Shown: in pieces, positions 385-59,690 of the stretch
How the letters are laid out: each line of letters starts with the position of its first letter
Numbering within the stretch: position 1 is the first letter of the stretch
IMG/VR virus record: IMGVR_UViG_3300020119_000126
Span: 1-64,000 of that record
DNA: 64,000 bases
Strand: one strand, 5' to 3'
Origin: a virus
Program-made: the position numbers and the translations under genes
The notes under the pieces: model-generated
What the model saw: the letters and a program-made list of their open reading frames with translations, nothing else
The model's database searches: none
Told to the model about the DNA's origin: nothing

Positions 385-398
385 TTCGGTATGCCGAA
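385..398. repeat. 14-bp palindrome copy 1 (TTCGGTATGCCGAA), intergenic
   Basis: Read directly; one of 15 copies. Confidence 0.95.
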
Positions 399-483
399 TT
401 CTATCTAAGTCCAAGCTAAGCTGTATCTAAGATTTTGTCACGTCCTTGTTATAATCATCGTGGAAAGACGTGACGTTTGTCAT

Positions 484-557
484 GCTCCTATAGCTCAACT
501 GGTTAGAGCACTCGCCTCTTAAGCGATAGGTTGAAGATTCGAGTTCTTCTAGGAGCA
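484..557 (+). tRNA. tRNA-Lys(CUU)
   Basis: GCTCCTA/TAGGAGC acceptor, D arm GCTC/GAGC, anticodon loop CTCTTAA, T-loop TTCGAGT. Confidence 0.9.
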
Positions 558-622
558 TTAGGTCAGGTCGGTTTCGCGAAAAAAGCAGAAAAACTGGCTG
601 AACATACCTGACCTAGTCTTAC

Positions 623-692
623 GGGGAGCTAGTTTATAGTAAAACGTTGCCTTGAACAAGCAAAGTTTGGTGGTCGTTCCATCAGCCCCCCA
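623..692 (+). tRNA. Atypical tRNA, probably Phe(GAA)
   Basis: GGGGAGC/GCCCCCC acceptor (one mismatch), anticodon loop TTGAACA, degenerate T-loop GTCGTTC. Confidence 0.5.
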
Positions 693-1261
693 CTAGACCA
701 AGATAGGTTCAAGCCAGCAGCGCAAGCTGAGACACTGGCGTCACAAATTCCGGTGATTAAAAAGGGTGAGCCGAACTGGTTCCGTCACGGGCCGTTCTGG
801 TCTATGGCACTGAACGCCTTGAAATGTCAGCGGTTTGCGGTGTCCGATAACACTGCTCATGTCCTAAATGGCATACAGTTATGCTTGACCTGTCGTAAGC
901 TTCTCGGACGAGCATGAGAGGCGACTACGTAGGCCATTGGGTGCAACTCCCGCATGGGACACTAGCGCTCCACCTTGGTGTAAAGAAAGGTCACCCATGC
1001 CTTGAAGCACGGCGGTGCTCATCACACCGTTGAACGGTAGAACTCCGTGGGCTGGACGTGAGGGCAGGGGAGTCTCATGGGCATTTGGCTCCCCTATACC
1101 ACTATGAAAGGAGTAGGTCATGCCAACTAATCTGCTTAAAGCGCGACGGTTACAGCGAGAAGTCAATAATCACATCGAAGCCAATAGCTCTGTCTTAATG
1201 CTGATTGACGTAGCACGATTGGGCCTGGCTCTCAATGAACTTGTCTCTACGATGGAGTTAT

Positions 1262-1333
1262 GCTCCCGTAGTTCAATAGTAGAACACTCCCCTTTTAAGG
1301 GACGAAATGCAAGTGCAAATCCTGTCGGGAGCA
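1262..1333 (+). tRNA. tRNA-Lys(UUU)
   Basis: GCTCCCG/CGGGAGC acceptor, anticodon loop CTTTTAA, T-loop TGCAAAT. Confidence 0.85.
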
Positions 1334-1398
1334 CACCGGGGTCAGGTAAAGGTTGAGCGCATTAAACGTAAGATAGGCGTACTTGACTCCGAATATAT

Positions 1399-1485
1399 GG
1401 AGAGATGCTAGAGTGGGAATAGGACGGTCTTGAAAACCGATGCCACGTAGCCATTCGTGCGGGGGTTCGACTCCCTCTCTCTCCT
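1399..1485 (+). tRNA. tRNA-Ser(UGA)
   Basis: GGAGAGA/TCTCTCC acceptor, loop CTTGAAA, long variable arm, T-loop TTCGACT. Confidence 0.9.
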
Positions 1486-2866: not shown

Positions 2867-2880
2867 TTCGGCATGCCGAA
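2867..2880. repeat. 14-bp palindrome copy 2 (TTCGGCATGCCGAA), just upstream of an RBS
   Basis: Read directly. Confidence 0.95.
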
Positions 2881-6467: not shown

Positions 6468-6657
6468 CAGAGCCTGGCAATGTGCTGGTTTGCTAAACCA
6501 GAGCCACCCTAACGGGTGCGTGCGTCCGAATCGCACACTCTCCGCTATAAGAAAGGTCAAGTAATGCTTTTTCGCTTTATTCGCTGGCTTCTCCGTATGA
6601 AGCCTGTTACTTACTGGAAGCGTGACGGCTCCTGGGTCGAACGCTAAGGAGATACCA

Positions 6658-6900
6658 ATGCCTAAAGTGACTGGCCCCAAGGGTTATATTACCGTTCAGG
6701 AAGCAGCCCGCAGCCTCTGGAAAGACCGGGCTATCAGCAGTGTGACCTCAGATTGCGTGGGCACCTGGGTACGCCGCGCCTGCAAAGATGGACTCATTCC
6801 CTTCATCGAGCAACCGATTGGCGACCCACATTCGGCAAGCCGAATTGCCAAGCTGGTCAAGATGAGCGATGTCGTGAAGTGGTGGGACACCAATGAGTGA
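6658..6900 (+). CDS. Excisionase/MerR-type HTH protein; contains palindrome copy 3 (6831-6844)
   Basis: YITVQEAA...WVRRAC..GLIP; AAGGAG RBS before ATG 6658. Confidence 0.6.
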   Translation: MPKVTGPKGYITVQEAARSLWKDRAISSVTSDCVGTWVRRACKDGLIPFIEQPIGDPHSASRIAKLVKMSDVVKWWDTNE

Positions 6901-10553: not shown

Positions 10554-10968
10554 GTGAGATAACACGCACGGCTGTATGGGGCAGGAACGGTCCAAAGCCC
10601 CATACGGCAGTCGTCCCCCAATAGACATACCACATGCTACCCATAGCAGCCACAGCCGTAGGTTCTCCCCAGGCCAGGATATAGTCGCCTAACGGCCTTG
10701 GTGTGACGAAGACTGTAGAGTGAACAATAACCTTTTCGACCTCGCTATAGGTGATATAAATCTCGCCGTTTTGACAGTAGCGAAAGTCTGAGGCATAGTA
10801 GCTTGAATAGCTTCTAAAGCAATCAGCATCAGCAGGAAGTGAAGCACCGGGGCGATAGCGATCCGGGATAGGAATTTCGGCATGCCGAATTTCACTCGTG
10901 GGTAGTGACTGAAATCTCACCAGAAGAAGTAGAATTGCCAGTAGTATCAATGTCAGCTTTGTCGCCAT
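10492..10968 (-). CDS. Secreted or membrane-anchored hypothetical protein; contains palindrome copy 4 (10876-10889)
   Basis: N-terminal hydrophobic signal-like segment. Confidence 0.55.
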   Translation of the reverse strand: MATKLTLILLAILLLLVRFQSLPTSEIRHAEIPIPDRYRPGASLPADADCFRSYSSYYASDFRYCQNGEIYITYSEVEKVIVHSTVFVTPRPLGDYILAWGEPTAVAAMGSMWYVYWGTTAVWGFGPFLPHTAVRVISLSLEPGGTGPWQGFRQRPKP

Positions 10969-13770: not shown

Positions 13771-14614
13771 CGTTTTGGCTCTTGCCAGCCTCGCCGCTGA
13801 GCAAAGCATTGACCGCACGACCACGATGGACCAGCAGCTTATTCAGGCCCTGCATTACCAGTTCATTGAGGCTGCCAAGATTGGTCGCAAAGCCGCCTTC
13901 ATCCTGCGTGACCTGGCTGCGCAGATGTGGCTGACCAAGGGTTTCCTTGAACTTCAAGTGCCCTACGACAATGACCCCACACAGAAGCTGACCTTCGGTG
14001 ACTATAGTGCCTGGATTGGCTATGCCGTTGAGAAGTCAGGCTTGAGTGAGGCTACAGCAAGCGCCCTGAAGAATTTCATCCTGAATGTCGTTGACCCGGT
14101 TGCCAAGAAGCTGATCCTCAATCCAGCCACAGGTCAGCCATTCACCGTAGAAGAAGTGCTGGACCTGCGCGAGAACCATACGCAGAAGCTGGCCTCAGCC
14201 GCACGCCGAGCCTTGAATGACCCGGATAAGACTGATGACGAGAAGTATCAGACCATTGGCGAGATGCTAGAGATGGCGAAGACACTGAATGTAGAAGACT
14301 TCGTCGATGAACTACGGGCACGGTCACTTTCGGCACGCCGAAATGCACCAATTGAGGTCAAGCAAGCGCTGGCTCCCAAGAAGATTGTCTATATGATTGT
14401 CATTGACGAGGACCAGCAAGCCATCATGAATATGCTCTTAGATGGCCGCACGACGCTACGGACCAAGACTGTCGATGACCTGATGTCTGACCTGATGGCA
14501 ATTCAGGTAACTGACGCTGCTCTGAACAACGTCAGTTCCATTGAGAACGATGGTCTGGTAGATTTGGGTCAGGTTGAAGAAACAGAAGTCACGACCTGGT
14601 TAGAGGAACAGTAA
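13745..14614 (+). CDS. Helical putative DNA-binding protein; contains palindrome copy 5 (14329-14342)
   Basis: F..W.....GLSEATAS helix pattern reminiscent of ParB-type HTH/DUF3102; family tentative. Confidence 0.45.
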   Translation: MNLSTSTNDVLALASLAAEQSIDRTTTMDQQLIQALHYQFIEAAKIGRKAAFILRDLAAQMWLTKGFLELQVPYDNDPTQKLTFGDYSAWIGYAVEKSGLSEATASALKNFILNVVDPVAKKLILNPATGQPFTVEEVLDLRENHTQKLASAARRALNDPDKTDDEKYQTIGEMLEMAKTLNVEDFVDELRARSLSARRNAPIEVKQALAPKKIVYMIVIDEDQQAIMNMLLDGRTTLRTKTVDDLMSDLMAIQVTDAALNNVSSIENDGLVDLGQVEETEVTTWLEEQ

Positions 14615-17962: not shown

Positions 17963-17989
17963 TAGCAACAACAAAATGAGGAATACACG

Positions 17990-18376
17990 ATGAATAAACA
18001 GACTCAGGCAGCCATCAACGTCATCAAGGATCAGGCTAACTATCTACGGGATGTGGCTGCGGGCTATTATGACCTCAACGCGCAGACCAACCAGAATATG
18101 GAGCGGCCCATTGCAGAATTCGGCACGCCGAATACCAGGGCGGTTTACAATAAGTGGCTGCGCTTTCTCCATGCACCCCTCAACAATCTAAACTTCCGGC
18201 TGAATGACGATGAGCGACATTATGTCTTCTCCATCATCTTTGGGCGTCCCATTGCCTCAGCCGTTGAACTGACCAACATTGAATCCTGGGCCTGGAACAA
18301 ATTTGCCGGGAAAAACCCTGAGCTAACCAGCGCCATGATTAAGGACATTCTGCGTGAACGACACACCGCCCGATAG
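17990..18376 (+). CDS. Hypothetical protein; contains palindrome copy 6 (18119-18132)
   Basis: GAGGA RBS, 128 aa. Confidence 0.7.
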   Translation: MNKQTQAAINVIKDQANYLRDVAAGYYDLNAQTNQNMERPIAEFGTPNTRAVYNKWLRFLHAPLNNLNFRLNDDERHYVFSIIFGRPIASAVELTNIESWAWNKFAGKNPELTSAMIKDILRERHTAR

Positions 18377-19984: not shown

Positions 19985-21108
19985 TGGACCTCAAAGAACA
20001 CGACGATAAATATGGCAAGAAAGGACTGAGCCGTCAATTAGGTGGCGGCTCCTATCAGTCCATCTTGCTGGATAGTGGTGTCTTTGGCTTGAATATTGCC
20101 CATGGCATTGGTGGCATTAAGACCGGGTCAGTGGTCCAACTCATTGGACCGCCCGGTCTTGGTAAGTCATCTATTGCCTATCGGTTGGTTGCCAATGGCA
20201 TGAAAGCAGGCATGAGCGGCTTCATCGTTGATACCGAAGGTGGCTTCAATGAGCCAATCCTCATGGATACGCTGGAAGACTATGGCGTTGACCTGACCAA
20301 TCCTAATCTGCCTTTGCGCTATGCTACCGCCACGAACCTGCGTGATGTAAAGTGGGTCAAGGGTAAGCCATCACAGAGCGCCGAGAAGCCTATCATGACT
20401 CTTGAGCGAATCATTCCCATGATTGAGGATTGGGTCATCAGTGAGGACATCTCCCCCAAGGGTGCTGTGGTCGTCTTTGACTCGCTGGACTTTATGCTCA
20501 GCGACGTGATGGTTGGCTCTACAGTAGATACTGCTACCGTGGCTTTGATTGCCCGTCGCATGAAGCACTGGCTGCGCAGTTTCATTGGCACTATCCGAGG
20601 CACTGGCTCCATGGTCATCATCATTCACCAGGTCAGCAGTAAGATTGACCCGGCAGCCAAGGATACTGAGACCTTCACCGGGGGTAATGCCTTACGCCAC
20701 GCGGCTCACTTTGCTTTGCGACTGAAGGATATAGGTCAGGAGAAGCCAGGTGAAGAAGTCCTGGGACGACAGGTACGGGCTTTTATCACGAAATCTAAAC
20801 AGGGGTTGCCCTACCGCACCTTTGAGTACGTCATCCGGTACGATGTGGGACCAGATAACATTGGTGCAGTTTTTGACTACGCTAAACGGCTCAAAGTTAT
20901 ACAAGGTGACTCCTGGGTCAGTGTGCCAACTACCACTGGGATACAGAAGATTAACGGCAAAGAACAGGTCAGGCAGTTCTGGATGAGCAATCCCGCCGAA
21001 CTTCGGCATGCCGAAAGTCTGGTGTACCAGCAGGTCCAGACCAATCTCAATGAAGTAGCACCGAGCATGTCAGCCGAGGAACGAGCGGAAAATGAAGCAG
21101 TCGATTAG
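19984..21108 (+). CDS. recA: RecA-like recombinase; contains palindrome copy 7 (21002-21015)
   Basis: GPPGLGKSS, VDTE, VFDSL, TGGNALRH, KSK. Confidence 0.9.
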   Translation: MDLKEHDDKYGKKGLSRQLGGGSYQSILLDSGVFGLNIAHGIGGIKTGSVVQLIGPPGLGKSSIAYRLVANGMKAGMSGFIVDTEGGFNEPILMDTLEDYGVDLTNPNLPLRYATATNLRDVKWVKGKPSQSAEKPIMTLERIIPMIEDWVISEDISPKGAVVVFDSLDFMLSDVMVGSTVDTATVALIARRMKHWLRSFIGTIRGTGSMVIIIHQVSSKIDPAAKDTETFTGGNALRHAAHFALRLKDIGQEKPGEEVLGRQVRAFITKSKQGLPYRTFEYVIRYDVGPDNIGAVFDYAKRLKVIQGDSWVSVPTTTGIQKINGKEQVRQFWMSNPAELRHAESLVYQQVQTNLNEVAPSMSAEERAENEAVD

Positions 21109-23215: not shown

Positions 23216-23217
23216 AT

Positions 23218-23532
23218 ATGCGCAATAAACGGCGGTCAAGCACCACTCAGCGGCGGAAGGGTACAGAAACAGGAAGCGTGACCTATCAGGTCACGTTTTA
23301 TCCTGACCGCTTTGAGCAGGACAAGTATATCTGTGAGAACCTTGACCTGTTAAAAGGCGTTGGCTCAGGAGCCAGCGGCTGGTTACGTGAGGCGGCGATT
23401 GCTAAAGCATTCGGCATGCCGAATGAGCCAGAGGTCAAGAAAGCGGTAGCTTCCAAAGCACCACCTGTTGAGGGTGTAGCTGATAAGGTAGCCGACTCAA
23501 TGGGGTTGAAATTTGGCAAGAAGAAAGAGTGA
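23218..23532 (+). CDS. ParR-like adaptor; contains palindrome copy 8 (23410-23423)
   Basis: Small basic ORF directly after parM; SGWLREA ribbon-helix-helix-like segment. Confidence 0.55.
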   Translation: MRNKRRSSTTQRRKGTETGSVTYQVTFYPDRFEQDKYICENLDLLKGVGSGASGWLREAAIAKAFGMPNEPEVKKAVASKAPPVEGVADKVADSMGLKFGKKKE

Positions 23533-23850: not shown

Positions 23851-24772
23851 CCCATTGCTCTGCCACCTTCTCCTGCACAAAGGATACTGCGCCTAGCGTA
23901 CCAGGCTTCCACTTGGCCTGGTAACCCACTTTATAACCCTCGATGACGGGCATACCTGCCATGCCCGGTTCGACAAGCGCCAGAAAACCACCTCGCTTGA
24001 ACTGGTATGACCATTGATGACTGTGAAATTGGATACAAAGGGTAGGTTCGGGCCAGCCTAGAAGCTGATGCCATTCGTCTAGCCATTTGCTGAGCTTTCC
24101 AACGGCGGCTCCTGGTTCTGATCCACTGAAGTTGCAATGCGAGATGATAGCGTCACCGAGTTGTCCGAGATAAGCCACCTTTCCAAGAGTTTCCGTGGAA
24201 AGACGTGGGTGATGTGCAGTAACATCGGTGCTGGCTGTGGCGATTCGCTTGGAAGCAAGGCTGGACACAAGTAGGTCAAGGGGGTCGTTAAACAAGGATC
24301 GGGGAGCGGCAGGGAAGTAGTCACATATCCGCCGCCAGAATCTGTCGTCATGGTTGCCTCTCCTGATGATGATTTGGGCTGGTGTCTTGAGTAGAAGGGT
24401 TTCGAAGTAAGCGGTCACGCGCTTATGTTCCTGACCAAATTCATCCTTCTCCTCATCCCAACCTCTAGGGTGAGCACTGAAGCAGGCCAGGTCATAGATG
24501 TCGCCACCTACTTCAATATGGTCAGGTTGTTCAGCGATAATCAGGGGTAGGAGAGCCGGGTGGGGATTGCCATGTAAGTCGCCTAGAGCAACGACCTTGC
24601 GCCGCTTAGAGGGTTTGGCAGGCTGCTTGTATTTATTGGTATCAAGAGTCATGCCAAGAAAGGCGCGAATGGCGTCCACAGAGTCGTCATTTCGGCGTGC
24701 CGAAAGTGGAGAGGGGGCTGCGACCCCCTTTCGTTTAACCTTGGTTGGTGTAAGTGAAGGACGGCGTGGCAT
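23813..24772 (-). CDS. Calcineurin-like metallophosphoesterase; contains palindrome copy 9 (24691-24704)
   Basis: GDLH, GGDIYD, GNHD, HSH. Confidence 0.85.
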   Translation of the reverse strand: MPRRPSLTPTKVKRKGVAAPSPLSARRNDDSVDAIRAFLGMTLDTNKYKQPAKPSKRRKVVALGDLHGNPHPALLPLIIAEQPDHIEVGGDIYDLACFSAHPRGWDEEKDEFGQEHKRVTAYFETLLLKTPAQIIIRRGNHDDRFWRRICDYFPAAPRSLFNDPLDLLVSSLASKRIATASTDVTAHHPRLSTETLGKVAYLGQLGDAIISHCNFSGSEPGAAVGKLSKWLDEWHQLLGWPEPTLCIQFHSHQWSYQFKRGGFLALVEPGMAGMPVIEGYKVGYQAKWKPGTLGAVSFVQEKVAEQWVTCLDTVHPLIP

Positions 24773-30064: not shown

Positions 30065-31237
30065 CTAGACCTTCTTCAGATATTCAGACTTGATCCACGC
30101 CGGGAGTAGAACTTGCGTCCAGCCAGACTGGTCGCCTACCGCTTCTATCTGTTCGCCTGTATTCATCATCTTGATGATGGTGCCATTAGGGGTCAGGCGA
30201 ACACGAACAGGACCATCCACTACTTCGGCTGTGCCGTAAATAGGTTCTGGCTGCTTTGTCTGGACAAAGAGGCATTGCCTGCCGTAGCCCATGTCAGTCA
30301 GCGCCTTATCGACCTGACCTGTTGGTACAACGAGGCTTTTGCCGCTATTAGGTGCCCAATAGTCAGGGTCATGAATAATAAAATTATCCTGATCGTCGTA
30401 TCCTATAACGACAAAAAAGTGCCCATCACTGCCCGGCACCCTATCAGCCTGATCCAGTCGGCCTAGAATATCCCTATAAGCGACAAGACAAATAACAGGT
30501 CGGCCTGCATCAATCTCTGCCTTGATAGTGGGAATAGCGACGTTGCTCACGGTCTTGGTGGTCAGGTTATAGAGGCCAGCCAGAGTCACAAGCTGCGGCA
30601 CGGTTAGACCCGCATCGGTATAGCGCAGTGGCGTGTCCATACTCAGGCGGTCAACTGTGGCATTAGACTTATTGTAGAAAGCTAACAGCATGGCTACGCA
30701 GGCGACTCCACAGTCGTTTCTACGGCCATTAGCTCCAATGCCCCATTGTGTGATGTAAGGTACGTTGAGAGTGACCACTTTAGATTCCTTTGGCAAAACT
30801 TGAATGAATTGATTATCCATTGCAGCTAGACCCTGGCTAAGATGCTCTGGCGTGATATCTTGACGGCCAATATTCGGATCAATGATGGTAAAATTCGGCG
30901 TGCCGAACCCAATCACGACGATAGCGTGTGGTCCATACCAATCTACAGCCACAATGACTGGTCTACCTTGACGCAGTTCTGACCTGAGATAATCCAGGGT
31001 CAGGCCAATGCCATAAGTCACAGGCACGCCCTGGCTGGTGATGAAGTCGGAGAGGTCCATCAGGTAGACCCCTGTATCTGCCTTTGGCATCAGACGGGCA
31101 CTAATCTGATCTACAGTTATAGTAAGTTTGCTATAAAACTTCAGCAGCATAGCCGCGCAGGTCGGGGCACAGTCATTGATGAACTTACCTGCATCGGGTT
31201 CGGTTTGCAGGAGCACAGGGACATTGATAATGGTCAT
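30065..31237 (-). CDS. Tandem C39-like cysteine peptidase with SH3-like C-terminus (putative lysin); contains palindrome copy 10 (30894-30907)
   Basis: Two repeats of NDC..[TA]C.AMLL...H..VVIG...I.DP; terminal VRVRLTP...GWTQV...WIKSEYL. Confidence 0.78.
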   Translation of the reverse strand: MTIINVPVLLQTEPDAGKFINDCAPTCAAMLLKFYSKLTITVDQISARLMPKADTGVYLMDLSDFITSQGVPVTYGIGLTLDYLRSELRQGRPVIVAVDWYGPHAIVVIGFGTPNFTIIDPNIGRQDITPEHLSQGLAAMDNQFIQVLPKESKVVTLNVPYITQWGIGANGRRNDCGVACVAMLLAFYNKSNATVDRLSMDTPLRYTDAGLTVPQLVTLAGLYNLTTKTVSNVAIPTIKAEIDAGRPVICLVAYRDILGRLDQADRVPGSDGHFFVVIGYDDQDNFIIHDPDYWAPNSGKSLVVPTGQVDKALTDMGYGRQCLFVQTKQPEPIYGTAEVVDGPVRVRLTPNGTIIKMMNTGEQIEAVGDQSGWTQVLLPAWIKSEYLKKV

Positions 31238-34648: not shown

Positions 34649-37600
34649 GGATGGACACCTCCAATGTCATAACGTTCAGTCAGATCAGCAATGGCATTGC
34701 AGATAAAATGGCCTAAACCACCAGGGTCAAGGGCAATCTGAGTAGCAAAGCCGTCAAAGGTAACATTGAGATTGGTGTCTGGCATGATTCCTACATCGGG
34801 ATTAGTCGGCCAGCCATTTAGCCGTGAGGCGAAATTGGCAAAGAAGTCATTACCGCCAACAGTGGCCTTGGCCCAGGTCTGTCCACCATCGGAAGTGCGC
34901 TGTACACTGCCGCTACTATATCTGATGTTGATATAATCACCATTGACGGTCAGGCTGTTGATAGAGCGAGAACGTCCTACCGTATTGCCAAAAGGTTCAG
35001 GAGAATAAAGCTGGTGCCATGTCCCATTGGCATCAAGGAATTGGTGATGATACGGAGTGCCGTTGTCATACCCTAGAACCATCACGGTCTTTTCGGCAGT
35101 ATTAGGCGTTCCGCCACTAAGGGTATAAGGAATATTGATCGCCCACCAGGGTATAGACGTATAGCTAGGGCCAGACGGGACTGCCCTGGTGGAAAAGGTT
35201 TGGCCGCCATCAAAGGATTCGCCTACAACGCCCCCATAAGAGCTAACGACAACATGTATATTGGTCCAGTTAGTAGCCCGCTGACCGATAGACAGGTCAC
35301 ATGGATAACCTGTGGGAAGGGCCGTGCGATGGATAGTAGCGAAATTATCGTAGGTATAAACGAAGTGAGTGCTGACACCAGTTTCCAGCCAGCAGAAATA
35401 ACCTTCCCAGTTGATACTGGCTGTGATGTCACCGAAATTACCCCAATCAGGATACTGGTGATGGCAACACCAGCGGTTATTCGTTAATGGCGTATGGGAA
35501 GTTAGCACCCATGAATTAGTGTGGACGTTGCTATTTATGGCTATACCCTGATCGCCTAGCATAATGAAGCGGTGCAGATGATAGGGGTCAGCCACAAAAT
35601 CAAACTGCGGTTCTGCAAATCCAGTTTTAAGAGCGTTCTGGATCGTGCTCCCAGGACTGAGGTCTGTCCATGATGGACTTCCTAATGCACCAGAACCATA
35701 GAAGAAGTAGCCCAATGAATCTACTGTGTAATAGCGTGAAGGCTTGAAACTATCCATCGGCCCCCAGGCTGAAGGCGCAGCAATAGAGATAATCGGCCCT
35801 GGGTCAGTAATGTCACCTGTGTCTTCGTCTGAATAAGCGCAAATAATATAACCGACATAACCTTGCAGCATGGCGGTAGAAGTATGGCCGACGATATAGG
35901 TATAAGACGGGTTGTATCGAGCACCGATAGCACTATAGAGAATAGTGCTCTCATAAATCTTGATGGTCGCGCCCTTGAACTCGACCCGAATACCAATAGT
36001 GAGAGCATTATCAGAGCGGTCAGTGAAGTCTGTGGTTGGCGTGAACGAGGCGCGAATACTATCTACACCACTATTGCGCTCGACCAGTTCAATCTTGCCT
36101 GACCAATAGTTGTACCAGACTGCCCAAAAGTTATCCTTATCCTGCGCCCGAATAAGCACGCCACCAAAGGTAGGGCTATCCGAGGCATTGGTTCCACCAA
36201 AGCTGGTAGGCGTGGGCAGGTCAAAGATTGCTGCGGCATGACCATCCTGCACTCGTCCTGAGCCAGTCGTATGAAAGCCAATGCTCTCACGATACTTGGG
36301 TTTGGCAACAAGCGCATTATTCTCAGTAGTAAAGACGCCTTTGACCGTGTCAGTATGGGCTAAACCAGAGTCAGTCTCGCCATTGATATTAGTAAAAGTG
36401 TCCAGGGCAGCCAGTTGGTTGTCCCATTGTTCAGCATGAGCACTTTCAATGCGGTCAGTTAACCAGGCCAGACGGTCACGAGTAGTAATCTGGATATTCT
36501 CAGATAGAGACTGACCATTACCTCTGACCTCTGGTCCAAGACTATCAATCTCCTCAATAGAAACCTGCACAGTGCCAAACTTGGCAATCAGGGTATAGAC
36601 CCCTGGGTTAATAAAGAATGAAGTCCAGAGAGCCTGGTCACGATTATCCAGCACGATGTTTTATGAACGAGCACTATTGATGCTAGACGTATAAGACAAG
36701 ACCCGGCTGGTCAGGTCCATGGTGAGGGCTTCAGGCGTATTATAGAATTCCAGGCAGCCCTCTGAGCTAACTAAAGCCGTTGGAGTTGCCAGGTAAAGCT
36801 TCTCACCTGACCTGACAATGGCAGCAGAGTCAGTGAAGTCACCATCCCCATCAGTGTCTACATCCAGGGGAATAATCTGCTCACTTGACCAATGTTTGCC
36901 ATCGCGTGAGGAGTAATAGGATGCCACCCTGTAGCCATAGCTGGTATCTACTTCATTACGGTCACCTTCAAAGCCGACGCTGGTTACCCATAGGGTGTCA
37001 TGAGAGTTCGGCACGCCGAATATTGAGTTCGTGCCCATAATCTTGGCTGAAGTGCGACACTGAATAGCCAAATCCCACTCGTCAAAAACCTGAACAGGAT
37101 ACCAGCGTGAAGTCTGAGCCAGACGCGAGTCCTGTGGTGGACGAATAATGAAGCTAATCAAGCCACCTGCGGGCACTGCCTGTTTAACAGGTAATCCTGC
37201 CACTGTCTTATAGGTATAAGTCGATGGCAGCATGGCTGACATGACAATGCAATGCCTGACCTCGGTTGTGGTATGGTCACCTGTCGTATCATCAGCTTTA
37301 GCCGTGAAGTCAATAGCATCCATCTCAAAGATGGTATTGGCCCAGGTCAAGTTCAGGTCATATTGATCCGTGGTATCTGCTGCAATAAGCGTATAAGTAC
37401 CATTTACATCGGTAGTTATGACATAAAGCAGAGGAATAGTGCCGACGACCACACTAAAAAAGGCAGGTTGAACAAAGTTCACTGAGGAATAACTCGTGTT
37501 AGTGCCCCAGGTCAAACCATCTAATGAGGTAGCCCGATAGACATAACCCAGGCTATTGATGGCATACACTTCCCAGGTCGAGCCATTCTTGATGACCTTG

Positions 37601-38363: not shown

Positions 38364-41300
38364 TACTGGCTCCATGTCTTGTCATACATATTGCTGATTG
38401 TGCTGATGGCCTTGCCCGGCTTGCTGTCTGGCACCATGATGATGGCATTAGCCCCCTCAGAATGAATAACCTTGAGCAAGTCACGAATTTCTTTGAGCAA
38501 TTCAGTCTGCTCAGGTGACATCACCACAGGCGCACCTGCCTGGGGAATGACATATTCGCCCTTATGGACTGTACCTGCGGCCTGGTATTTACTGCCTGAC
38601 CCGGTATAGCCACCCTCAGCAAAACCATGATAGCTTGTCGTCCCATCAGGATGGCTAACTGCGGTGATGCCCATCGGCTGCTGAGTAATGGTTGGGCTAT
38701 TATAAGTTGACTGCACATGCCACTGACCATCAGCCCCAGCCACAAGAGCACCACCACTAGGAACAACGGTTGCTCCACCTGTGCCAGCATAGCTACCACT
38801 ACCAGAAGGCATAGGGGCTGAAGCTAATTGTTGAAGTTTGGCTGCCACATTGCCAAGAGTCGTTATTGCCCCTTGTCCAGTCGTTGAGACATACTGAAGG
38901 GCAGCCGCATTCTGGCTATAAAGCGTATTGGCCGCTGTGATTGATCCGGCCAGATCATCGATAGCTCGTTTTTCAGCCTGATGGAAGGTCAGGCTTTGCT
39001 GAGCTTGAGTCAGTTCTTCCTGAGTAATCTGGCGGTTGAAACGGCGCTTCTCATCATCAAGCTGGCGTTCTTCATGGGCAAACTCGATTTGCTTCTGGTA
39101 GTTCTGCTGCGCCAGTTGGAAGTTCTGGACCTGGAACTGCTTGTCCTGTTGGAAATGCTGCTCATCACGCTTATATTGCTCGTCACCCCACTTAATCCTG
39201 GTCTTGGCCCGTTCTTCCTCGGTATCCAGATGGCCCATTTGCATGGAGTGTTGAACCACAGCCTCATCACGATGCCGCATTGCCACCCGGCGTTCACGAC
39301 CTCGCGAATAGCGCACGCTTTCATCAGCATCAATCATCGAGAAGCCAAAATTGACCTCGCTGACATTGCGCTGGAAAGCCATGTCTTGCAGGCCCCATTG
39401 CTGCTCAGACACCTGATGACTACGCTGAATCTGCATACTCTGCTGCTGGTAGTTCAGGTTATAGTTCATCTGCTGGCCTTGCAGCGCCATCTGCTGACCC
39501 TGGTACTGGAAGCCCCAGTCCTGCTGAGCACGCTGCTGAGCTACGCCACGATCCTCAAAGCCCCAGTTGGCCTGAGTCGAGCGTACCTGCCGATTAAGGT
39601 CAACCTGAGCCAGATTGAAGTCATATTCCCTGACCTTATATTGCTCGGCATTCATAGCCGTGGTCAGTTGGACCTGGTTCATGCTGCTCAGTTGGCTGCC
39701 ACTATAGAGGCTGTTGCCTGTGACCATACGCTGACTTGAAGCGATACCAGCCCGCTGTGAAGCAATGTCACCAGTAATCCGCTCGTCATAACCCGCCTGC
39801 ATCCCCAGTGAACCACCACGAGAGCCAGTCTGGACCAGGCGACGATTATTACCGACCATGCCACGGTCAGCCGCAATGGAGTTAGCGATAGGATCACCAC
39901 CTACTACAGCCATACCGAAGGCAAAGTCCTGACCACTGGCATTAGCAGCGAAGGAGTCGAAGGCTTGCATGGTGGCTGGATTAGCATTGCCATAGCGGGT
40001 ATAACCAGCGTAAGTGTTGAAAGCGCCCTGTGCCTGGCGACCAATCCGATTAGCCAGTGCGTAGTCGCCCGATAATTCGGCACGCCGAACTCCCTGGAAG
40101 GCGGCTGAAGACTGGTCATTGAAGCCCAGGCCAGCATTAGCCATACCGCCGAACATCTGTGCCCCTTGCAAGATGCCCTGTTGCTGCTCGGTGTTCAGAC
40201 CCATGAAGGTCTGTTCATTCGTTGAGGTCAGACCAGTCTGCCGGGCAAAGGCGTTATAGCTGCCTGCATAGGCAGTGGCTACTGTCAGGTTCTTGCCTGC
40301 GGTGCCTGTCATCCCATTCATCTGATTAATGGCATTGACCCGGTATTGGTACATTGCCGCATCATCTGAGGTACCCTTACCTGCCATCTGTGCCCTGGCC
40401 TGTGCTAACGCTTCAGGGTCAAGGCCGCGCATCTGCAAGGTGGCATAGCTCAAACCGATGTGATTGATGTCACCAGAGGATTGAGTCTGGTCAAAGGCAT
40501 TGATATTATTGAGGTAGTTCCAACCTTGCTGCATATTCCCAGTGCTCATCTCGCCTGCATTCAGGACGTAGGAAGCACCCATATTGCCAGCCGATGTGGT
40601 GTCCATACCTCGACCCAGTTGAAGCTGGTTAGTCATACCAGCCTTCATGCCTGTTCGACCTAGTAAGCGCTGGAATTGAGCCGGGTCAGAGGTTCTGACA
40701 CTGTTCAGGATATTGCCCCACAGGTCGCCCTTGGTAGAGTCGTTAAACTGTGACTGGTAGTCAATACCATACTGCGCCCAGGCACCAGACTGCTGGATAC
40801 CACCCAGGATGTCGCGCATCGAGCCGGGATTGGCAGTGAACTGGTTGAGCAGGTCAAGAGGATTAACTATCTGCTGGCCTGCGGCATATTGCTGCTGCTG
40901 AGTAGACTGCGCCTGGCCTGAGAAGAAACCCAGTTGTTGCTGCTGAGCGATAGATAGTCCTGTGACTGCTGTAGCGGCTGTCTGGTAAGCTTTAGAGCCA
41001 TAAGTGCTGGCTTGAGGACCGCCTTGAGCAAAAGCCACCCCACCCATGATGCCAGCCGCATCAAAGCCATACTGCTTACCTGCGGCAAACAGTTGGGCGA
41101 CATTGCCAAAGTTGGCATAATCATTGCCTGCGGCTCCCCCACGCGCTCCACGACCACGCAGTCTGTCTTCAGGAATGCCACCAAAGATAGCTTCAGCCTG
41201 TACCGTGCCAGCAAACTGAGCAGTGGCATCATATTGGCCGAGCAGTTCGCCGTGCTCTGAGATGTAGCCCTGCGTAATACGCTGCATCATCTCTGACCCG

Positions 41301-44300: not shown

Positions 44301-47300
44301 ACCCCGGCTCCCTTGAGATGATTGGCAAAAGTCTCAAAGTCCAAGAAGGCAGTGGTCGCTGAGGAAGCTCCGGTGCCCGCCATATATGCATTCAACTGCC
44401 GGGTGTGCCTGACCTGGTCTTCAGGGTCAGACATATCACTGAAGGTCAGGTTCCAAACCGAGTTATTCTCCTGGTCATACCAGGCTGCCTGACCATTGAC
44501 CCACACCCCGCCAATATTCAAGCCACCAGTGAACTTCTCACCAGAAGGATCAAAGTAAAGGGACTGTTTCTTGGAGCGGGCAATGCCATTCATCGTGCCA
44601 GGCTTCAAGCCAAGCACCTGCGCGGCAATCTCATGACCAAAGCCTGATGGGTCAGACTGCCAGATAGGTGCGCCTGACTTAGATTTGCCCATCTTCTCTG
44701 ACTGGAAGGGCACACGCAGTACGGTACGACCTACGGCACGAGCCAGTGAGACACCGCCCATTTCACCAGCACCAAGTAGAGTCTCCATGGCTGCTTCCGC
44801 AGTCAGGGCATAAGCTGGCACATGGAAGCGGGCATAAGACTCCTCAGAGTAAGGAGCGCGAGGCATCATCTGACCCCGGTCTACATTCATTCGTCCCGGT
44901 TGAGTAGGTGGAGCACCCATCCCAGCATTGAAACTAGCTGAGAATTCAGCCCAGTCACCCGGATCAGGTGGCAGGTCAGCCGCCATAACCATAGGTTCCA
45001 CAGGAGCCTTAGTCTGCATTCCTGTTAATGCCGTGGCAAAGGCGGTTGGAAATGCCTGACCTTTTGACCATGGCTGCTCAAAGAAAGTTGTGGCTGCGGT
45101 CTTGATTTGATCTATTTGCCGAGCAAAGACTGCTGAAAGTTCTTGAGCACTCTCATAAAATAAATCGACATGTTCTTGAGACAGTTGGATAGGGTCAGTA
45201 ATTAGCTGAGTCGTCAAAGCCCAGGTCATGATGTCACTACGATGAGACAAGGCTCGCGACTCAATGCCCGACACAGCCATTTCAGCCGCAACACCAGCTA
45301 GAAGCCGCTTGGCCTGAGCCTTGCGGTCACTGGTCACGGTAACAATAGCCGCACCTTTACGACTTAGCTCAGCATCACGCTCAGAACCAATGCTAATGCC
45401 CTCTAGACTGCCTGGGGTCAGGAATTCGGCTACTAGAGCATGACCTATCTCATGAACGCCTGTGCTTAGTGCGCCAAGGATTGGATGCTCTGGACGAACT
45501 GGAAGCAATTCATGAAGCTTGTCTCGGAAGTCGAGATTTTTATATGATTCTTCGATTTGCTCCCGATAGCGCTGGCGAGTGGCATCACTCAAGCGGTTGG
45601 GGTTAAGCGCCGCCGCTCTAATATTAGAGAAGTCAATTACATCTACTGGCGCAGTCGGTTCGGCAACATTCGGCATGCCGAAATCTTGCGGAGCCTTGCC
45701 AAAGTCCCAGGCTACACCCTTTGAGGTTGGTTTGCCTACCTTATTACGTAGGTCAACTGCCCGCTGAGCATATTTTGCCAATGGATCATCAAAGGTTGAC
45801 CCCTTGAGATGGACCAGTTGGGCAGCCCGCTGAATGGCTTCATTGCCTGCTTCACCAGTCGGGAAGAACTCCTTATTGTGGTAAAGTGCGTCCATCAGGT
45901 CAGTGGCAGACATCTCACCTGACCCATAGAGTCCACCAGTGCCAACGGCCAGTTCTAGCCGAGCCGCTTGAGCAGCAATCTCCCGGTAGCGGTCAGCCCG
46001 TTGTTGAGAACCAAAGCGCTCCTTGGTGAAGAAGGTCGCCACATCATAGGGTAGATACTCGCGTTGTTTCTCCTTGGTAGTGAAGTTCTGGCCGACTTCC
46101 TTAGTAATCTGGTTGAGGACCATCTTGCCTGTGAAGTACGAGGCAAAGGAATTACCCAGGGCAACCCCTGACCCTAGTAACTGGCTGATCTTGCCAGAGG
46201 CTGAGCTATCACCATTACGGAAATCTTCCACATGGCGAGTAACTTCAATTAAGGTCTTCTCATAACTATTTTGGTCAACCGGAACCATGAGCCGCGCAAT
46301 GTCCTGCGCTGTCATGTTCTCCTTTTTATTGACCAGGAAAGCTTGAATAAGTTTATTGGAGACACTACGGTCACTACTCAGGTTGGTATAGTCAACCTTA
46401 CCCTTCAGATCAGGAAAGAAAGTGCCAAGACTCTCATTAGACAGCTTGAGTAGTTCCGCACCAGCCGGGTCAAGTGGTTTGGTGTCGAGCACCGTCTGAT
46501 ACTGGTAGGCACGAAAGTTCTCAGAGGCAGTTAGCGCCGCTTCATTATTGCCAAGGGTCTTATACCAGGCCCTCATGCCAAAGGTCATATTGAATATCTG
46601 ACCCATCGCAGCTTTGGCTGTGGCAGTATCCTGCGTACCCTGACCAAGCACATTGATTGCGGCTGTGGCTGAGTTCTGCTTATTGGCAATGGTATTGGCG
46701 ATACCAGAGATGGTCAGGCCGCCATAGTCCGTGTTCTGAATTTCAAGCCAGGTTCCGGCCTGACCCGCTGGATGATTAGGATCAAGAGAGGCAGCCAAAA
46801 TTTCGGCATGAGGCGTAGGCCGCTGGATACTGACCAGCTTGCCATCACGCAGCGTAACCATAGCTGGACCAATGGTTGTGGTATCTTTGTCGAAGTCACC
46901 GCCCTGCTTGAACTGGTCAAGAGGTGAAATCATCAACTGGTCTTCGTTGAATTCCATGTCGCTCAGACCAAGCCGACGACTTAAGCCCTCACTCATAATT
47001 GAGGTATAGCTGGCCTGCTTCAAGGTCATATGAGGTGACCTGAAGATAGGCGCAACGGGCAGAATGCCTGCATCCAAAGCACCGACCAGACCTACCTGAT
47101 GCACTGCCCCCAGGAACTCATGTTCCTTGGCTTTGATAAGGTTAGTAAGGTCTTGCTCAGACAGGTCATGACCAAGTTCTTTCAGGTTGGCCTTGATGTA
47201 CTCCCGGTAGCGATGACTGCTCATTCCAGCCAGGCCAGCCGTCATCATCGGGTCACCACCCACTGGCAAATGGGCTGCCGCATCACCACGACGACCAATG

Positions 47301-53394: not shown

Positions 53395-53408
53395 TTCGGT
53401 ATGCCGAA
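53395..53408. repeat. 14-bp palindrome copy 14 (TTCGGTATGCCGAA), upstream of the tail tube RBS
   Basis: Read directly. Confidence 0.95.
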
Positions 53409-56659: not shown

Positions 56660-56668
56660 TGTTACCTC

Positions 56669-57394
56669 TTAGAAGGTCTTACGGGAAGCCATCGCTGCAT
56701 CCATTTCCCGTTCCAGCGTAATGTACTGCTGCTGGTACTTTGGATCGCGATAATCAAGCTTCTCCATGTCATCTTGAATTTCGTTCATCGAGCGTGCCCG
56801 ATTATTGTCACGTGAGCCGAGGCTGACGGTTGGGGTAGCACCTGCCAGAAAGTTACGACGCTGTGCAGCCAGGCCCTGTTCTTCGGTGTCAGTCTGTTGT
56901 GTCTGCTGCTGCGTGGTATCTGTCTTGGTCTCATCTTGCTTGGAAGGCGTAATCTTGTCGCTCAGGCGCTTCAGGTAGGCTTCGTAGTCTTCCGGCTTGT
57001 CGAAGTCGTCCGGTGCCCGGAGGTCTTCTGGCTCAAACACCTTAAAGACATCTTTGTACTTGTCTTTAACCACGGTTGAGGTCTTAAGCAGGCTGTGCTC
57101 ACGTTCCCACTTGGTAGCTAACTTCTCGAACTTGTCTTTCTCGGAAGTCATGTCATTCAGTTGCTTCTGAATGTCCTTGGTTCCTGTGCGAACCTTGCCT
57201 TCGGCTTCTTCAGCGCGAGAGACTGCATCGTCGTAGAGTTCTTGCAGTTTTTCCTGGTCTTTTTCCAGCTTGGTGTACTTTTTGGACAGGCCGCGATACT
57301 TGGCTTCGTAGTCCACTGATTTGACGCCGTCAGTGTCGCGCTTCACCGCTTCTGAACGCGAGGCTGTAGTGTCAAGGTCAGATGTGTCAGGCAT
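56669..57394 (-). CDS. Capsid scaffolding protein
   Basis: Charged coiled coil (DYEAKYRGL) immediately before the capsid gene. Confidence 0.72.
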   Translation of the reverse strand: MPDTSDLDTTASRSEAVKRDTDGVKSVDYEAKYRGLSKKYTKLEKDQEKLQELYDDAVSRAEEAEGKVRTGTKDIQKQLNDMTSEKDKFEKLATKWEREHSLLKTSTVVKDKYKDVFKVFEPEDLRAPDDFDKPEDYEAYLKRLSDKITPSKQDETKTDTTQQQTQQTDTEEQGLAAQRRNFLAGATPTVSLGSRDNNRARSMNEIQDDMEKLDYRDPKYQQQYITLEREMDAAMASRKTF

Positions 57395-57468
57395 GAGAGA
57401 ACCCCCAAATAAAATAGTCGGATTTCTCCGACTATCGTCAACTATGCCCGACAAGTGAAACCTGACAC

Positions 57469-57666
57469 TTATATGGACTTCTGAACTTTCCTGATCAGTT
57501 CGATGTCAGCCAGGTTCAGCTTGACCTTTTCTTCCCAAAAGGCCAGTTCAACCTCAACCCTGTCCTTGTCGATGTAGCGAATGAAGTAGCCCTGCGGGAA
57601 GGACTGCAAGTCTCCCCGCAATGCTTCCCGGCGTATCTTGACCGTGTCACCGTACTGAAAGGTCAT
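57469..57666 (-). CDS. Small KOW/SH3-fold-like protein
   Basis: FQYGDTVKI...RVEVEL...LNLADIELI. Confidence 0.45.
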   Translation of the reverse strand: MTFQYGDTVKIRREALRGDLQSFPQGYFIRYIDKDRVEVELAFWEEKVKLNLADIELIRKVQKSI

Positions 57667-59303
57667 TACTGCTCACCGGGTTCCTTCATGATGGTCGAGA
57701 TAGCCTGCGTTTTGGTGTGGACCTGGACTTTGCCCTGGGATGGAGCACTGGTCGTTTCCTTGGTTTCGCTTGAGCCTGCCAACTGCTGCAAGAACTGCAA
57801 CCACTTCATGACATCTTCCTCAGTGCGCTGCGCGTCTTCGGTCAGGTTTAGCAGCTTATTGCCATCGCGGGGCGTAATCATCTGGCTCTGGATGCCAATC
57901 GCCACTTCATTCAGGTCAGCTTCACGATCACGCGGGATCATGGGTGACCAATCAACTGCCCAATCGACTTCTTCCAGATGTTTCGTGGTGATGCCAGCAA
58001 TACCCTTCTGTGCAGCCAACTGTGCTATAGCCTTGGCAATCAGGATCAGACCAGTGGTCCAGTATGTCCTGACTGCTCTAACCTTAGCCGTGAGGGGGTG
58101 CATACGGAAAGCCAGGGTCAAGGCTGAACGCTGGCTACCTTCGTCTTCGCCTTCAGCCACACCAGGGATAAACGTATCTCGACCAAACTGCTGGCGCAGG
58201 GTTTCGACATGGTTGACCATCGCCTCATTAAGTGGAGGTGGGTCAATAGCAAACACGTCTGGTTCTTCACCACCTGGCGGTGTCTGACCCAAATTGATGG
58301 CTGGCCTGGTTCCACCAATGTCCATAGTCTTGGGAGCCGTATTAACATTACGGATATAGGTGTCACGATGGCTCACTTCTTCAATCACGTCAGAAATGTC
58401 AGCCTGCCGAGCATTCATTTCCTTGGCAAGTTCAACCACGTCATCTAGCAGACTCAAGCCATAAAAGCTGCCAGCCCGTTCGCGAGGGATATAGAAGAAA
58501 GGCACCTTACCAAAGGGATTATCCATGTCATCAAACAGGAACTCGGTACTGCCAATCTTATACTTCAGCGGCTTATCACCTAGCTTGATGGTGACCTTCT
58601 TTTCGGTCCAATGCTCGATGAACAAAGGATCAGCCGCGCCATCAGCAAGGTCATAGCCAAAACGAAGATGAGCTTCGCGACCTGACATTCGGTAAATAAC
58701 CCAGGCTTCAAGCAAATACTCTGGTCGCCCAGTGTCCCATACAGGTAGAAAAAAATCAGGAAGGATATGTTCCAGCCGGATGCCATATTCCAGCTTAAGG
58801 TCTTCAGGATTCCAGCCCAGGCGAAAGACGATACCGCCCAGGAACGACTGAAGTAGCCCGGCTTCTTGCTGTAAGGAGCGCCCATTATTATCAGTCCACA
58901 CCCGGTTGATGAAGTCTTCAAGCTCATCGGCTCGTGTTCTGGCCGCATCATCCACCTTGTCTTTGCCTGGTTTATTGCGTGGCGTAATGCGGATAGGAGC
59001 CAGTGGACCTGGCGTATCATTGACCTCGCCAAATAGAACATAGCTATGCTCCATGCACACTTTCTTCAGGTAGTTAATCTGAAGGGGATAACGCAGCGCC
59101 GGATTGCCATGATCATCCACGCCTTCAGGCATAGTCTCATTGAGCCATTGCCCAGTAAAGCCCCACCAATACTTCAGGTAGCGGTCTGCCTGATAGGACC
59201 AGCGGGCAAAGGGAAAGATAGCGGGGAACTCATCCTGGGTAAAAGGAACAGTTGTGCCCGTACCTATGCGGCGGTCTTCGATGTCTTGAAAATATGAAGG
59301 CAT
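57666..59303 (-). CDS. Portal protein
   Basis: 545 aa after terminase; NYLK, NPFGKVPF, SALTL, WSPMIPRD. Confidence 0.85.
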   Translation of the reverse strand: MPSYFQDIEDRRIGTGTTVPFTQDEFPAIFPFARWSYQADRYLKYWWGFTGQWLNETMPEGVDDHGNPALRYPLQINYLKKVCMEHSYVLFGEVNDTPGPLAPIRITPRNKPGKDKVDDAARTRADELEDFINRVWTDNNGRSLQQEAGLLQSFLGGIVFRLGWNPEDLKLEYGIRLEHILPDFFLPVWDTGRPEYLLEAWVIYRMSGREAHLRFGYDLADGAADPLFIEHWTEKKVTIKLGDKPLKYKIGSTEFLFDDMDNPFGKVPFFYIPRERAGSFYGLSLLDDVVELAKEMNARQADISDVIEEVSHRDTYIRNVNTAPKTMDIGGTRPAINLGQTPPGGEEPDVFAIDPPPLNEAMVNHVETLRQQFGRDTFIPGVAEGEDEGSQRSALTLAFRMHPLTAKVRAVRTYWTTGLILIAKAIAQLAAQKGIAGITTKHLEEVDWAVDWSPMIPRDREADLNEVAIGIQSQMITPRDGNKLLNLTEDAQRTEEDVMKWLQFLQQLAGSSETKETTSAPSQGKVQVHTKTQAISTIMKEPGEQ

Positions 59304-59537
59304 TTAGAGTTCCTTTAACCAGAGTGTCTTGACCCATCCAATGAGGCCACCATACTCCACCAGGGAATAGGGGTCTTGGATTGGCAAGGTATAGATGTGA
59401 TAAACGGTTTCACCTGCATCAGCGCAACCACCCCGGTAGCCTTTACAGCGCCGGGCAGTTTCAGATGGCCCCATACGTATTTGGACATTGACCAGCGTTT
59501 CGCGTGGTTCAAGTTCCATGATTCGCTTTAAGGTCAT
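59304..59537 (-). CDS. Small hypothetical protein
   Basis: Coupled ORF between terminase and portal. Confidence 0.45.
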   Translation of the reverse strand: MTLKRIMELEPRETLVNVQIRMGPSETARRCKGYRGGCADAGETVYHIYTLPIQDPYSLVEYGGLIGWVKTLWLKEL

Positions 59538-59676
59538 CGTCGTCTGCGCCTGATGACCTGCTTGGTCCCTACAATCGGACTATCATAGAAGCCTTTGGCT
59601 ATCCAGAAGCAGAGTCGAGCCAGTTTATGGTCCAGCATGAGCAATTGACCCCAACGGTTGAAGGTCAGGCCAATAA

Positions 59677-59690
59677 TTCGGCATGCCGAA
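59677..59690. repeat. 14-bp palindrome copy 15, 3 nt beyond the terminase stop
   Basis: Read directly. Confidence 0.95.

Follow-up and report, generated by a model that had tools for sequence, protein, structure and literature searches.

Why would a virus keep one and the same short palindrome at intervals of a few kilobases along its chromosome? The question is raised by a 64,000-nucleotide stretch of DNA (hereafter the window) that comprises bases 1-64000 of the 90,156-bp virus record IMGVR_UViG_3300020119_000126, and in which an earlier note, made from the letters alone, had pointed out fifteen copies of the 14-bp palindrome TTCGGY-NN-GCCGAA. We find that these copies belong to a lattice of sites that is real, strongly selected and present across the clade of this phage. 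Searching the window with TTCGGYNNGCCGAA returned exactly the same fifteen positions, as 28 strand-matches made up of 13 self-complementary sites counted twice and the two TTCGGT sites. The split between half-sites is likewise as first described (TTCGGC in 13/15, TTCGGT in 2/15, at 385 and 53395). In dinucleotide-preserving shuffles of the window (n = 100), both the mean and the maximum number of TTCGGYNNGCCGAA matches were 0. The sites in the window are the following:

385..398, site TTCGGTATGCCGAA (one-position Y variant), between tRNA-His and tRNA-Lys
2867..2880, site TTCGGCATGCCGAA, intergenic, 17 nt 5' of the ATG at 2898
6831..6844, site TTCGGCAAGCCGAA, within open reading frame (ORF) 6622-6900, frame 2
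10876..10889, site TTCGGCATGCCGAA, 2 bp past the stop codon of the minus-strand helix-turn-helix (HTH)-like gene 10892-11488, in a doubtful 68-aa ORF
14329..14342, site TTCGGCACGCCGAA, within the candidate reader gene 13745-14614, frame 2 (LSARRN)
18119..18132, site TTCGGCACGCCGAA, within ORF 17990-18376, frame 0
21002..21015, site TTCGGCATGCCGAA, close to the 3' end of the RecA/UvsX-like gene 19984-21108, frame 1
23410..23423, site TTCGGCATGCCGAA, within the 104-aa ORF 23218-23532, frame 0
24691..24704, site TTCGGCGTGCCGAA, 5' part of the minus-strand ORF 23813-24844 (start codon uncertain)
30894..30907, site TTCGGCGTGCCGAA, within the minus-strand ORF 30065-31237, frame 0
37007..37020, site TTCGGCACGCCGAA, within the minus-strand ORF 36661-37899, frame 0
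40076..40089, site TTCGGCACGCCGAA, within the 3997-aa ORF 38363-50356, frame 1
45669..45682, site TTCGGCATGCCGAA, within the 3997-aa ORF 38363-50356, frame 0
53395..53408, site TTCGGTATGCCGAA (Y variant), intergenic between two conserved tail-region genes
59677..59690, site TTCGGCATGCCGAA, intergenic, directly 3' of the large terminase gene

The series continues past the window. The full-genome scan that the earlier note had proposed yields 23 sites in the whole record (G000) and none for a reversed control pattern, and the record ends overlap by 127 bp, which suggests a circular assembly. The mismatch spectrum of the palindrome is all-or-none: in the whole record, TTCGGCNNGCCGAA was observed 20 times with 0 mismatches (0.005 expected at equal base frequencies, as for all these expectations), 5 times with one mismatch (0.19 expected), 7 times with two (3.2 expected) and 26 times with three (31.9 expected). 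In each copy, one or both of the central bases complete the half-site TTCGGCA, and the central dinucleotide is limited to AT, AC/GT, AA/TT and AG/CT. A variant at 86794 of the record reads TTCGGC..ACCGAA, which breaks the pairing. The A/T-rich flanks described earlier are borne out (A+T makes up 71% of positions -4 to -1 and 49% of the genome), and beyond four bases on either side there is no further conservation. The site is thus compact, like a protein footprint; origin-like A/T-rich flanks were rejected because the enrichment does not extend beyond those four bases. In other viral contigs, the exact 14-mer occurs as a single copy per stretch among the matches listed (~111 stretches).

The sites are spaced far more evenly than chance would have it. 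The 23 gaps on the circle average 3.9 kb with a coefficient of variation (CV) of 0.44, an evenness reached in 2/100,000 random placements. The smallest gap measures 1281 bp (p about 1e-4) and the largest 7726 bp (p about 1e-3). We conclude that the spacing in this phage is regulated. Sites are present in both transcription arms of the genome:

~62.8 kb via the record end to 23.8 kb, plus strand, replication arm
62.6 kb down to 23.8 kb, minus strand, structural arm

A crude, greedy ORF call places 18 of the 23 sites within ORFs, nine in frame 0, five in frame 1 and four in frame 2. Within the window 11/15 do so and four are intergenic (385, 2867, 53395 and 59677), in line with the original description of the copies as mostly intragenic; the calls around sites 10876 and 24691 are doubtful. 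The five intergenic sites among 23 exceed what the ~8% non-coding share of the genome under the same call would give (p = 0.03), and several sites lie immediately 3' of a stop codon or 11-40 nt 5' of a start codon. Such a lean is expected if each site is placed at the cheapest available spot. The peptides previously assigned to the intragenic copies were verified there (FG[MTV]P, R[HRPQ]AE and SA[RSC]R). Selection acts on the DNA and not on the protein, as had been proposed: the sites fall in each of the three frames, and half-sites on their own show no enrichment. Outside palindromes, the half-site TTCGGC was observed 44 times in this phage with 49.8 expected, and lone half-sites occur at the expected frequency in all eight of the lattice-bearing records described below. 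This excludes single words of the Chi or uptake-sequence kind, and Chi-like half-sites were rejected accordingly. The selected unit is the palindrome, not its half, which indicates two-fold symmetric recognition.

Relatives were collected through the large terminase, TerL. Metagenomes hold 109 TerL relatives, one of them at 85% identity on a 92-kb contig; a profile built from 24 of them led to 31 IMG/VR loci, 19 metagenome loci and one contig of a metagenome-assembled genome (MAG). All relatives in a metagenome scan stood at 58% identity or less, and single-protein scans for closer relatives found none. Cultured relatives were not found by tblastn (TerL against 50,697 phage records; also the 556-aa protein). 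None of five related records searched holds this phage's motif. Yet every near-complete relative has a different palindrome, and in total 8/10 records of the clade, which consists of uncultured siphoviruses, carry a private palindrome of 11-15 bp in 15-35 copies each. Besides that of this phage, the lattices are:

G001 (73.9 kb, 43% GC), TTCGA-N4-TCGAA, 35 copies
G002 (79.9 kb, 56% GC), CTTCC-N3-GGAAG, 24 copies
G005 (83.7 kb), GGAACGTTCC, 31 copies
G006 (24.7-kb fragment), GGGAA-W-TTCCC, 15 copies
G007 (85.8 kb), TGGGA-N2-TCCCA, 24 copies
G009 (90.8 kb), CTCCAA-S-TTGGAG, 25 copies
G010 (84.2 kb), TTTCC-N4-GGAAA, 23 copies

G008 is the same phage as G007. Among shorter loci, L194 has TTCTGC-S-GCAGAA (10 copies in 21 kb), another has TACGAC-S-GTCGTA (4 copies in 20 kb) and one has an asymmetric motif, TTTGTCCGGTCAAA. 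None of the eight lattice records has a spacing CV of 1 or more, and the evenness is significant in G001 (CV 0.53, 0/20,000) and G007 (CV 0.52, p = 0.0004). Site positions are mostly not common to this phage and G001. The shared exception is one intergenic gap of the tail region, which holds the lineage's own motif here (53395), in G001 (58366) and in G007 (2232). Alignable sites were retained in 2/2 cases between loci 90% identical, which is weak evidence, and P0111, a relative's homologue of the 13745 protein, offers a hint in reading LSTRRN against the site-encoded LSARRN of this phage. A distant relative, the Anaerolineales MAG contig, has no lattice. Density and spacing thus persist as positions and sequence turn over, which is what a coverage function with a co-evolving reader predicts, and the different private palindromes of relatives suggest that site and reader co-evolve.

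Some lattices of the clade have peculiarities of their own. Each of the 35 sites of G001 contains exactly one GATC, and the symmetric centre that would give two is never seen; about a third of them have the fixed asymmetric form TTCGATCCGTCGAA. At G002 75190-76822 (L155), four motif copies lie 120-1270 bp apart in one 1023-aa ORF and have a common longer flank, CATCCACTTCCACAGGAAGC; this cluster is more suggestive of a repeated protein module than of a set of independent sites.

What, then, are the sites for? On balance, we take each palindrome to be a place where a DNA-binding protein of two-fold symmetry, made by the phage, docks and from which it acts over a few kilobases, an explanation to which we give slightly better than even credence. 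The binding, the phage origin of the protein, its dimeric state and its effect are all things that we infer. The palindrome, with its half-site TTCGGCA and A/T-rich flanks, would be the cognate site of a sequence-specific phage protein, and one exact site would be kept roughly every 4 kb around the chromosome, wherever coding allows. Selection would act on chromosome coverage and not on the control of particular promoters: for a protein with a reach of a few kilobases, one site every 2-4 kb covers the chromosome. Once bound, the protein would act a few kilobases outward, either sliding or spreading in the manner of KorB, ParB or Noc, or blocking polymerases like the repressors at mycobacteriophage stoperators; KorB-like loading and sliding and stoperator-like roadblock silencing appear about equally open. 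The whole phage genome would thereby be marked, silenced or organised as one unit, and co-evolution of site and reader would give each lineage its private palindrome. The genome-wide system for a dimeric protein that the earlier note had proposed thus gains from the even, phage-specific lattice; the functions listed for it are still not told apart, and protein binding has the standing just described.

Candidate readers were sought by BLASTP and jackhmmer clustering of the ORFs from ten records. The families found in nearly all lattice genomes are structural genes, primase, helicase and the single-stranded DNA-binding protein SSB. Genes of these kinds and the RecA/UvsX-like gene lie as follows in this phage:

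59694-61532, minus strand, large terminase TerL
57666-59303, minus strand, portal
55250-56659, minus strand, major capsid
38363-50356, minus strand, 3997-aa ORF in the tape-measure position (2200-3750 aa in clade relatives)
14615-15625, DnaG-type primase
16340-17941, DnaB-like helicase
82153-82566 of the record, SSB
19984-21108, RecA/UvsX-like gene

When ~70 phage proteins were compared with Pfam, PHROGs or NCBIfam, the sole DNA-binding domain found was that of the tandem winged-helix protein 61701-62165. The earlier note had named this protein and those at 13745, 10892 and 23218 for binding assays. Together with the ATPase gene beside the last of them, they are:

13745-14614, plus strand, candidate reader, 289 aa, directly 5' of the primase gene
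10892-11488, minus strand, candidate reader or repressor, 198 aa, HTH-like, on the strand opposite to its neighbours
61701-62165, minus strand, further candidate, 154-aa tandem-duplicated winged helix upstream of TerL, with Pfam HTH_20 and HTH_11 matches near or below cut-offs
22142-23215, plus strand, ParM/actin-like ATPase (phrog_691 'partition protein', E = 3e-18; NCBIfam PRTRC_D 6e-8 and ParM 3e-5, both below cut-offs)
23218-23532, plus strand, 104-aa basic ORF directly downstream of the ParM-like gene, adaptor-like

The 13745 protein emerges as the best lead of the four, on weak evidence. It contains an HTH-like stretch, FGDYSAWIGYAVEKSGLSEATASALKNF, with the signature F..W..Y..GLS..S.LKNF (recognised by eye). 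Most of the ten structural neighbours of its ESM Atlas model belong to ParB, Noc, RepB or HTH_ParB clusters, at template-modelling (TM) scores of 0.31-0.41 and a model confidence (pLDDT) of 0.64. The family is small (40 representatives in 1.8 billion proteins) and the protein has no NCBIfam match. With a family profile, G001, G002 and G009 yield members (E = 9e-9; hhalign 92.6%) and G010 a weak match (22%). For the G010 protein there is a clear homologue in G007, and its profile matches that of the 13745 family at 50% probability (E = 1.6e-4). A locus search with a closer alignment of the family found no related loci. From these models and profiles, the 13745-14614 protein might be the reader of the lattice, a tentative assignment that we would expect to fail a good deal more often than it holds.

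The 10892 protein is HTH-like by eye. It has no Pfam or PHROG match, and those of its Atlas neighbours that have a named family belong to HTH_23 or HTH_Tnp_1. Its homologues in G001, G002 and G005 are all oriented against their neighbours; the HTH stretch is missing from the G005 homologue in the alignment, and a lattice site lies within the 3' end of the G002 homologue. The protein encoded at 61701-62165 is a candidate small-terminase-like protein or late regulator. Its internal tandem duplication makes it a single-chain pseudo-dimer, a form that also occurs in L184, and single-domain homologues are found in G001, G002 and G003 (76-114 aa), L118 and L186. The family is limited to the closer subclade, and one of its members belongs to a relative without a lattice, G003. 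The 23218 protein was found in this phage alone. With the ATPase gene it forms a possible type II partition pair (22142-23532), for which no homologue was found in the other clade records.

Signs of a carried state bear on what such a protein would be for. No integrase was found in this phage, which may therefore persist as a plasmid prophage, and no tyrosine integrase was found in five records searched. Large serine recombinases are encoded by G002 and G007 only, and IMG/VR classes G002 and G008 as proviruses, so at least part of the clade looks temperate. As judged from the genes, the serine recombinases and the ParM-like gene speak for a carried state, one that would profit from genome-wide silencing; in a prophage or plasmid, shutting down the whole genome would have a purpose.

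Several observations weigh against a phage-made docking protein. Neither the divergent region between the arms (about 62.6-62.8 kb) nor the gap upstream of 10892-11488 holds a site, though classical operators would be expected in both. Evenness is not significant in five of the eight lattice records (G002, G005, G006, G009 and G010; CV 0.76-0.85, p = 0.09-0.31). Two structural-arm fragments, G003 (39.7 kb) and G004 (34.7 kb), are devoid of any repeated motif, so the system is dispensable for this virion type. The geometry of the half-sites varies by lineage (7+7, 5-3-5, 6-1-6), which is awkward for a single conserved reader. Apart from primase, helicase and SSB, no non-structural family is common to the lattice genomes, and no binding protein has been identified. 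A six-frame hidden Markov model search for the ParB N-terminal domain (PF02195) gave 0 matches at E <= 1 in G000, G001, G002, G005, G007 and G009 (G006 and G010 were not covered), in a search whose control matched in 11/14 known genomes, and the HTH_3 domain is absent from 5/5 lattice genomes tested. As for the leading candidate, its ParB-like neighbours score just TM 0.31-0.41 on a model of pLDDT 0.64, its family of 45 members has no sequence match to Pfam or to chains in the PDB, and the family was not detected in G005. A bolder version is a ParB-independent 'address lattice' with regulated spacing, in which a fast-evolving reader of an unrecognised fold family, perhaps that of the 13745 protein, marks the chromosome as self; we regard this version as possible but doubtful. 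Such an address lattice would act on the viral chromosome as a unit, via silencing, via protection, or via recruitment of the replication or packaging machinery.

The docking-site explanation can be set beside systems already described. The closest precedent in outward form is one that the earlier note's list of analogues lacked. In PMC4351075, Cluster O mycobacteriophages (Corndog and its relatives) are reported to carry more than 30 copies of a 17-bp dyad, TGTTCGG-N3-CCGAACA, absent from the host genomes that its authors checked; the paper suggests a dimeric regulator, doubts a transcriptional role and leaves the function open. We reproduced 34 copies in the Corndog record AY129335. Like the sites studied here, the Cluster O dyads are inverted repeats of invariant sequence around a variable spacer; they occur within as well as between the genes of a siphovirus and have no clear orientation to transcription. 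The Cluster O core TTCGG-N3-CCGAA also resembles the TTCGG-N4-CCGAA of this phage. In contrast, the Corndog sites show no even spacing (CV 1.06, p = 0.77) and are concentrated in one arm. Corndog gp90 is a ParB-like nuclease-domain protein, whereas the ParB N-domain was not found in 6/6 lattice genomes. The three DNA-binding candidates of Corndog, gp53, gp76 and gp90, have no relatives among the ORFs of this clade, and at the level of TerL and the reader candidates there is no detectable homology between the clade and the Cluster O phages.

KorB and its OB sites on plasmid RK2 appear to be the best mechanistic analogue. According to PMC11790492, KorB is a dimeric HTH protein that loads at its sites and acts at a distance by sliding; the OB sites are short palindromes scattered across a replicon comparable in size, many lying far from any promoter. 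KorB-like sliding would explain selection for coverage, and the dispersed 13-16-bp palindromes of ParB, KorB and Noc are matched here by 23 copies of a 14-bp site. The lattice differs from these systems in that their ParB N-terminal CTPase domain was not found in the 6/6 genomes searched and that no KorA-like partner is known for it. Compared with OB sites, those of this phage are more numerous and more evenly spread, and the motif changes from one close lineage to another.

Stoperators, by comparison, seem the best analogue for genome-wide repressor sites that co-evolve with their protein. In PMC6550527, repressors of Cluster A phages are reported to have many sites of 13-14 bp genome-wide and off promoters, with co-evolving specificities. 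This clade matches them in having genome-wide sites of lineage-specific sequence and in looking temperate in parts. A stoperator, however, is an asymmetric site that follows the direction of transcription and binds a repressor monomer (PMC9283540), whereas the sites of this clade are palindromic and unoriented, with the central AC and GT forms in both arms of this phage. In addition, no repressor was identified in this phage, and there is no operator at the promoter region of the arm junction. The lattice is thus not a member of the ParB/KorB/Noc, stoperator or Cluster O families, given the failed ParB N-domain test, the symmetry of sites unlike stoperators and the lack of Cluster O homology. 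Word searches of the literature on dispersed phage palindromes yielded nothing relevant apart from the Cluster O and stoperator papers, and so nothing on this clade or on an evenly spaced lattice; a literature search for motif strings gave one unrelated paper.

Could the palindrome be read in some other way? As a hairpin on single strands, in RNA or unwound DNA, it could serve in lagging-strand priming by the DnaG-type primase, as a promoter for a virion RNA polymerase or as an RNA-processing site. Copied in either direction, an inverted repeat folds into an identical hairpin. Among non-structural families, only primase, DnaB-like helicase and SSB occur in nearly all lattice genomes, and the four central bases of the G010 motif vary freely, as those of a loop would. 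Okazaki fragments have a scale similar to the 2-4 kb spacing. We nevertheless consider a hairpin unlikely, since folding is weak (-2.2 to -7.3 kcal/mol as RNA, -2.3 to -4.3 as DNA) and the stems are invariant within a genome; compensatory variants are missing and the existing variants disrupt pairing. The flanks have no U-tract, T run or other conserved element, and an intrinsic terminator or stable hairpin was rejected on the weak stem energy and the missing T run. Known DnaG-type primases read about 3 bases. Moreover, the sites are mostly intragenic and unoriented to transcription beyond a weak sense-strand purine bias (9/11 in G001, 14/19 in G002). A signal derived from the host, be it the site of a host regulator, of a nucleoid-occlusion or nucleoid protein, or a host repeat, would let phages differ with their hosts; no universal phage reader was found, and the GC contents of relatives (43-58%) suggest different hosts. 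The 5-4-5 geometry resembles that of CRP/FNR-type dimer sites. We searched the Anaerolineales MAG with the distant TerL relative and 300 genomes of its phylum (0.9-8 Mb). The motif occurs 0-8 times per genome in these 301, no more than the reversed control, against 23 times in the 90 kb of the phage; four of the 301 are flagged as unpublished, and the result does not hang on any one of them. The equal frequency in a bacterial chromosome that the earlier note would have read as a host repeat was therefore not seen in this sample; the actual host has not been identified. The single copy of the exact 14-mer per stretch among the matches listed in other viral contigs (~111) and the missing lattice in the related fragments G003 and G004 also speak against a host signal, to which we attach little probability.

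Multiple pac-like sites, read by the winged-helix protein 61701-62165, would allow packaging to start, or 'self' to be recognised, anywhere on a concatemer. This protein is the only Pfam-detectable DNA-binding protein of the phage and lies beside TerL, it is a single-chain pseudo-dimer here and in L184 (a single domain in G001, G002, L118 and L186), and the circular assembly with its 127-bp overlap fits a permuted genome, or an assembly artefact. However, the family was not detected in the lattice genomes G005, G007, G009 and G010, G003 has the gene and no lattice, and no site lies in or beside 61701-62165. Known pac sites are single loci. Packaging sites are thus rather improbable. Even less credence is due to a dispersed centromere, at which the 23218-23532 protein and the ParM-like ATPase would segregate a plasmid prophage, as with the sopC-like sites of phage N15. 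The ParM/PRTRC_D-like matches, the lattice site inside the downstream 104-aa gene and the failure to find an integrase are all in keeping with it. Yet the pair has no homologue in the other lattice genomes although the lattice is clade-wide, and the lattice is kept in G002, G005, G007, G009 and G010, where no partition gene was detected at the sensitivity of ORF clustering. The NCBIfam matches lie far below cut-offs, and the ribbon-helix-helix reading of the 104-aa protein was made by eye only. Type II centromeres are clustered direct repeats beside parM, unlike 23 dispersed palindromes, and membership in ParMRC was rejected since the sites are dispersed palindromes without a parC-like cluster.

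Lattices of this kind have been glimpsed in print in one cultured group, Cluster O, and have stood unexplained since 2015. What is particular here is the regulated spacing, the lineage-private motifs and the fact that no ParB-type reader was found. If the reader of the docking sites were found, it would reveal how a virus can address the whole of its chromosome from a few dozen sites, explain a hidden constraint on phage coding sequences and provide orthogonal protein-site pairs as possible tools. For annotation, such motifs carry a risk, as they are easily taken for promoters, terminators or host repeats.

Other features of these genomes deserve mention. The window opens with a cluster of eight tRNA genes at 180-2775 (His, Lys x2, Ser, Leu, Glu x2 and Asp), and sites 385 and 2867 lie in the cluster's spacers. 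No DNA polymerase was recognised in the phage, despite its primase, helicase, SSB, RNase H and RecA-like gene. Two genes on the plus strand, 15597-16337 and 7026-7643, encode T5orf172/MUG113 (GIY-YIG-like) domains, and the former sits between the primase and helicase genes, a position like that of a homing endonuclease. In G006, the major capsid gene (16963-18500, L165) is apparently in pieces with minus-strand ORFs between them, which may reflect an intron or an intein-like insertion. An 819-aa protein of this phage (G000 67492-69951; L182:3492-5951) is conserved in G001 and G006 and has no Pfam, PHROG or NCBIfam match. Finally, the early arm encodes a 418-aa protein with a PARP catalytic domain (G000 72969-74225; L182:8969-10225; Pfam E = 2e-23), which, going by its domain, may be an ADP-ribosyltransferase for host takeover.

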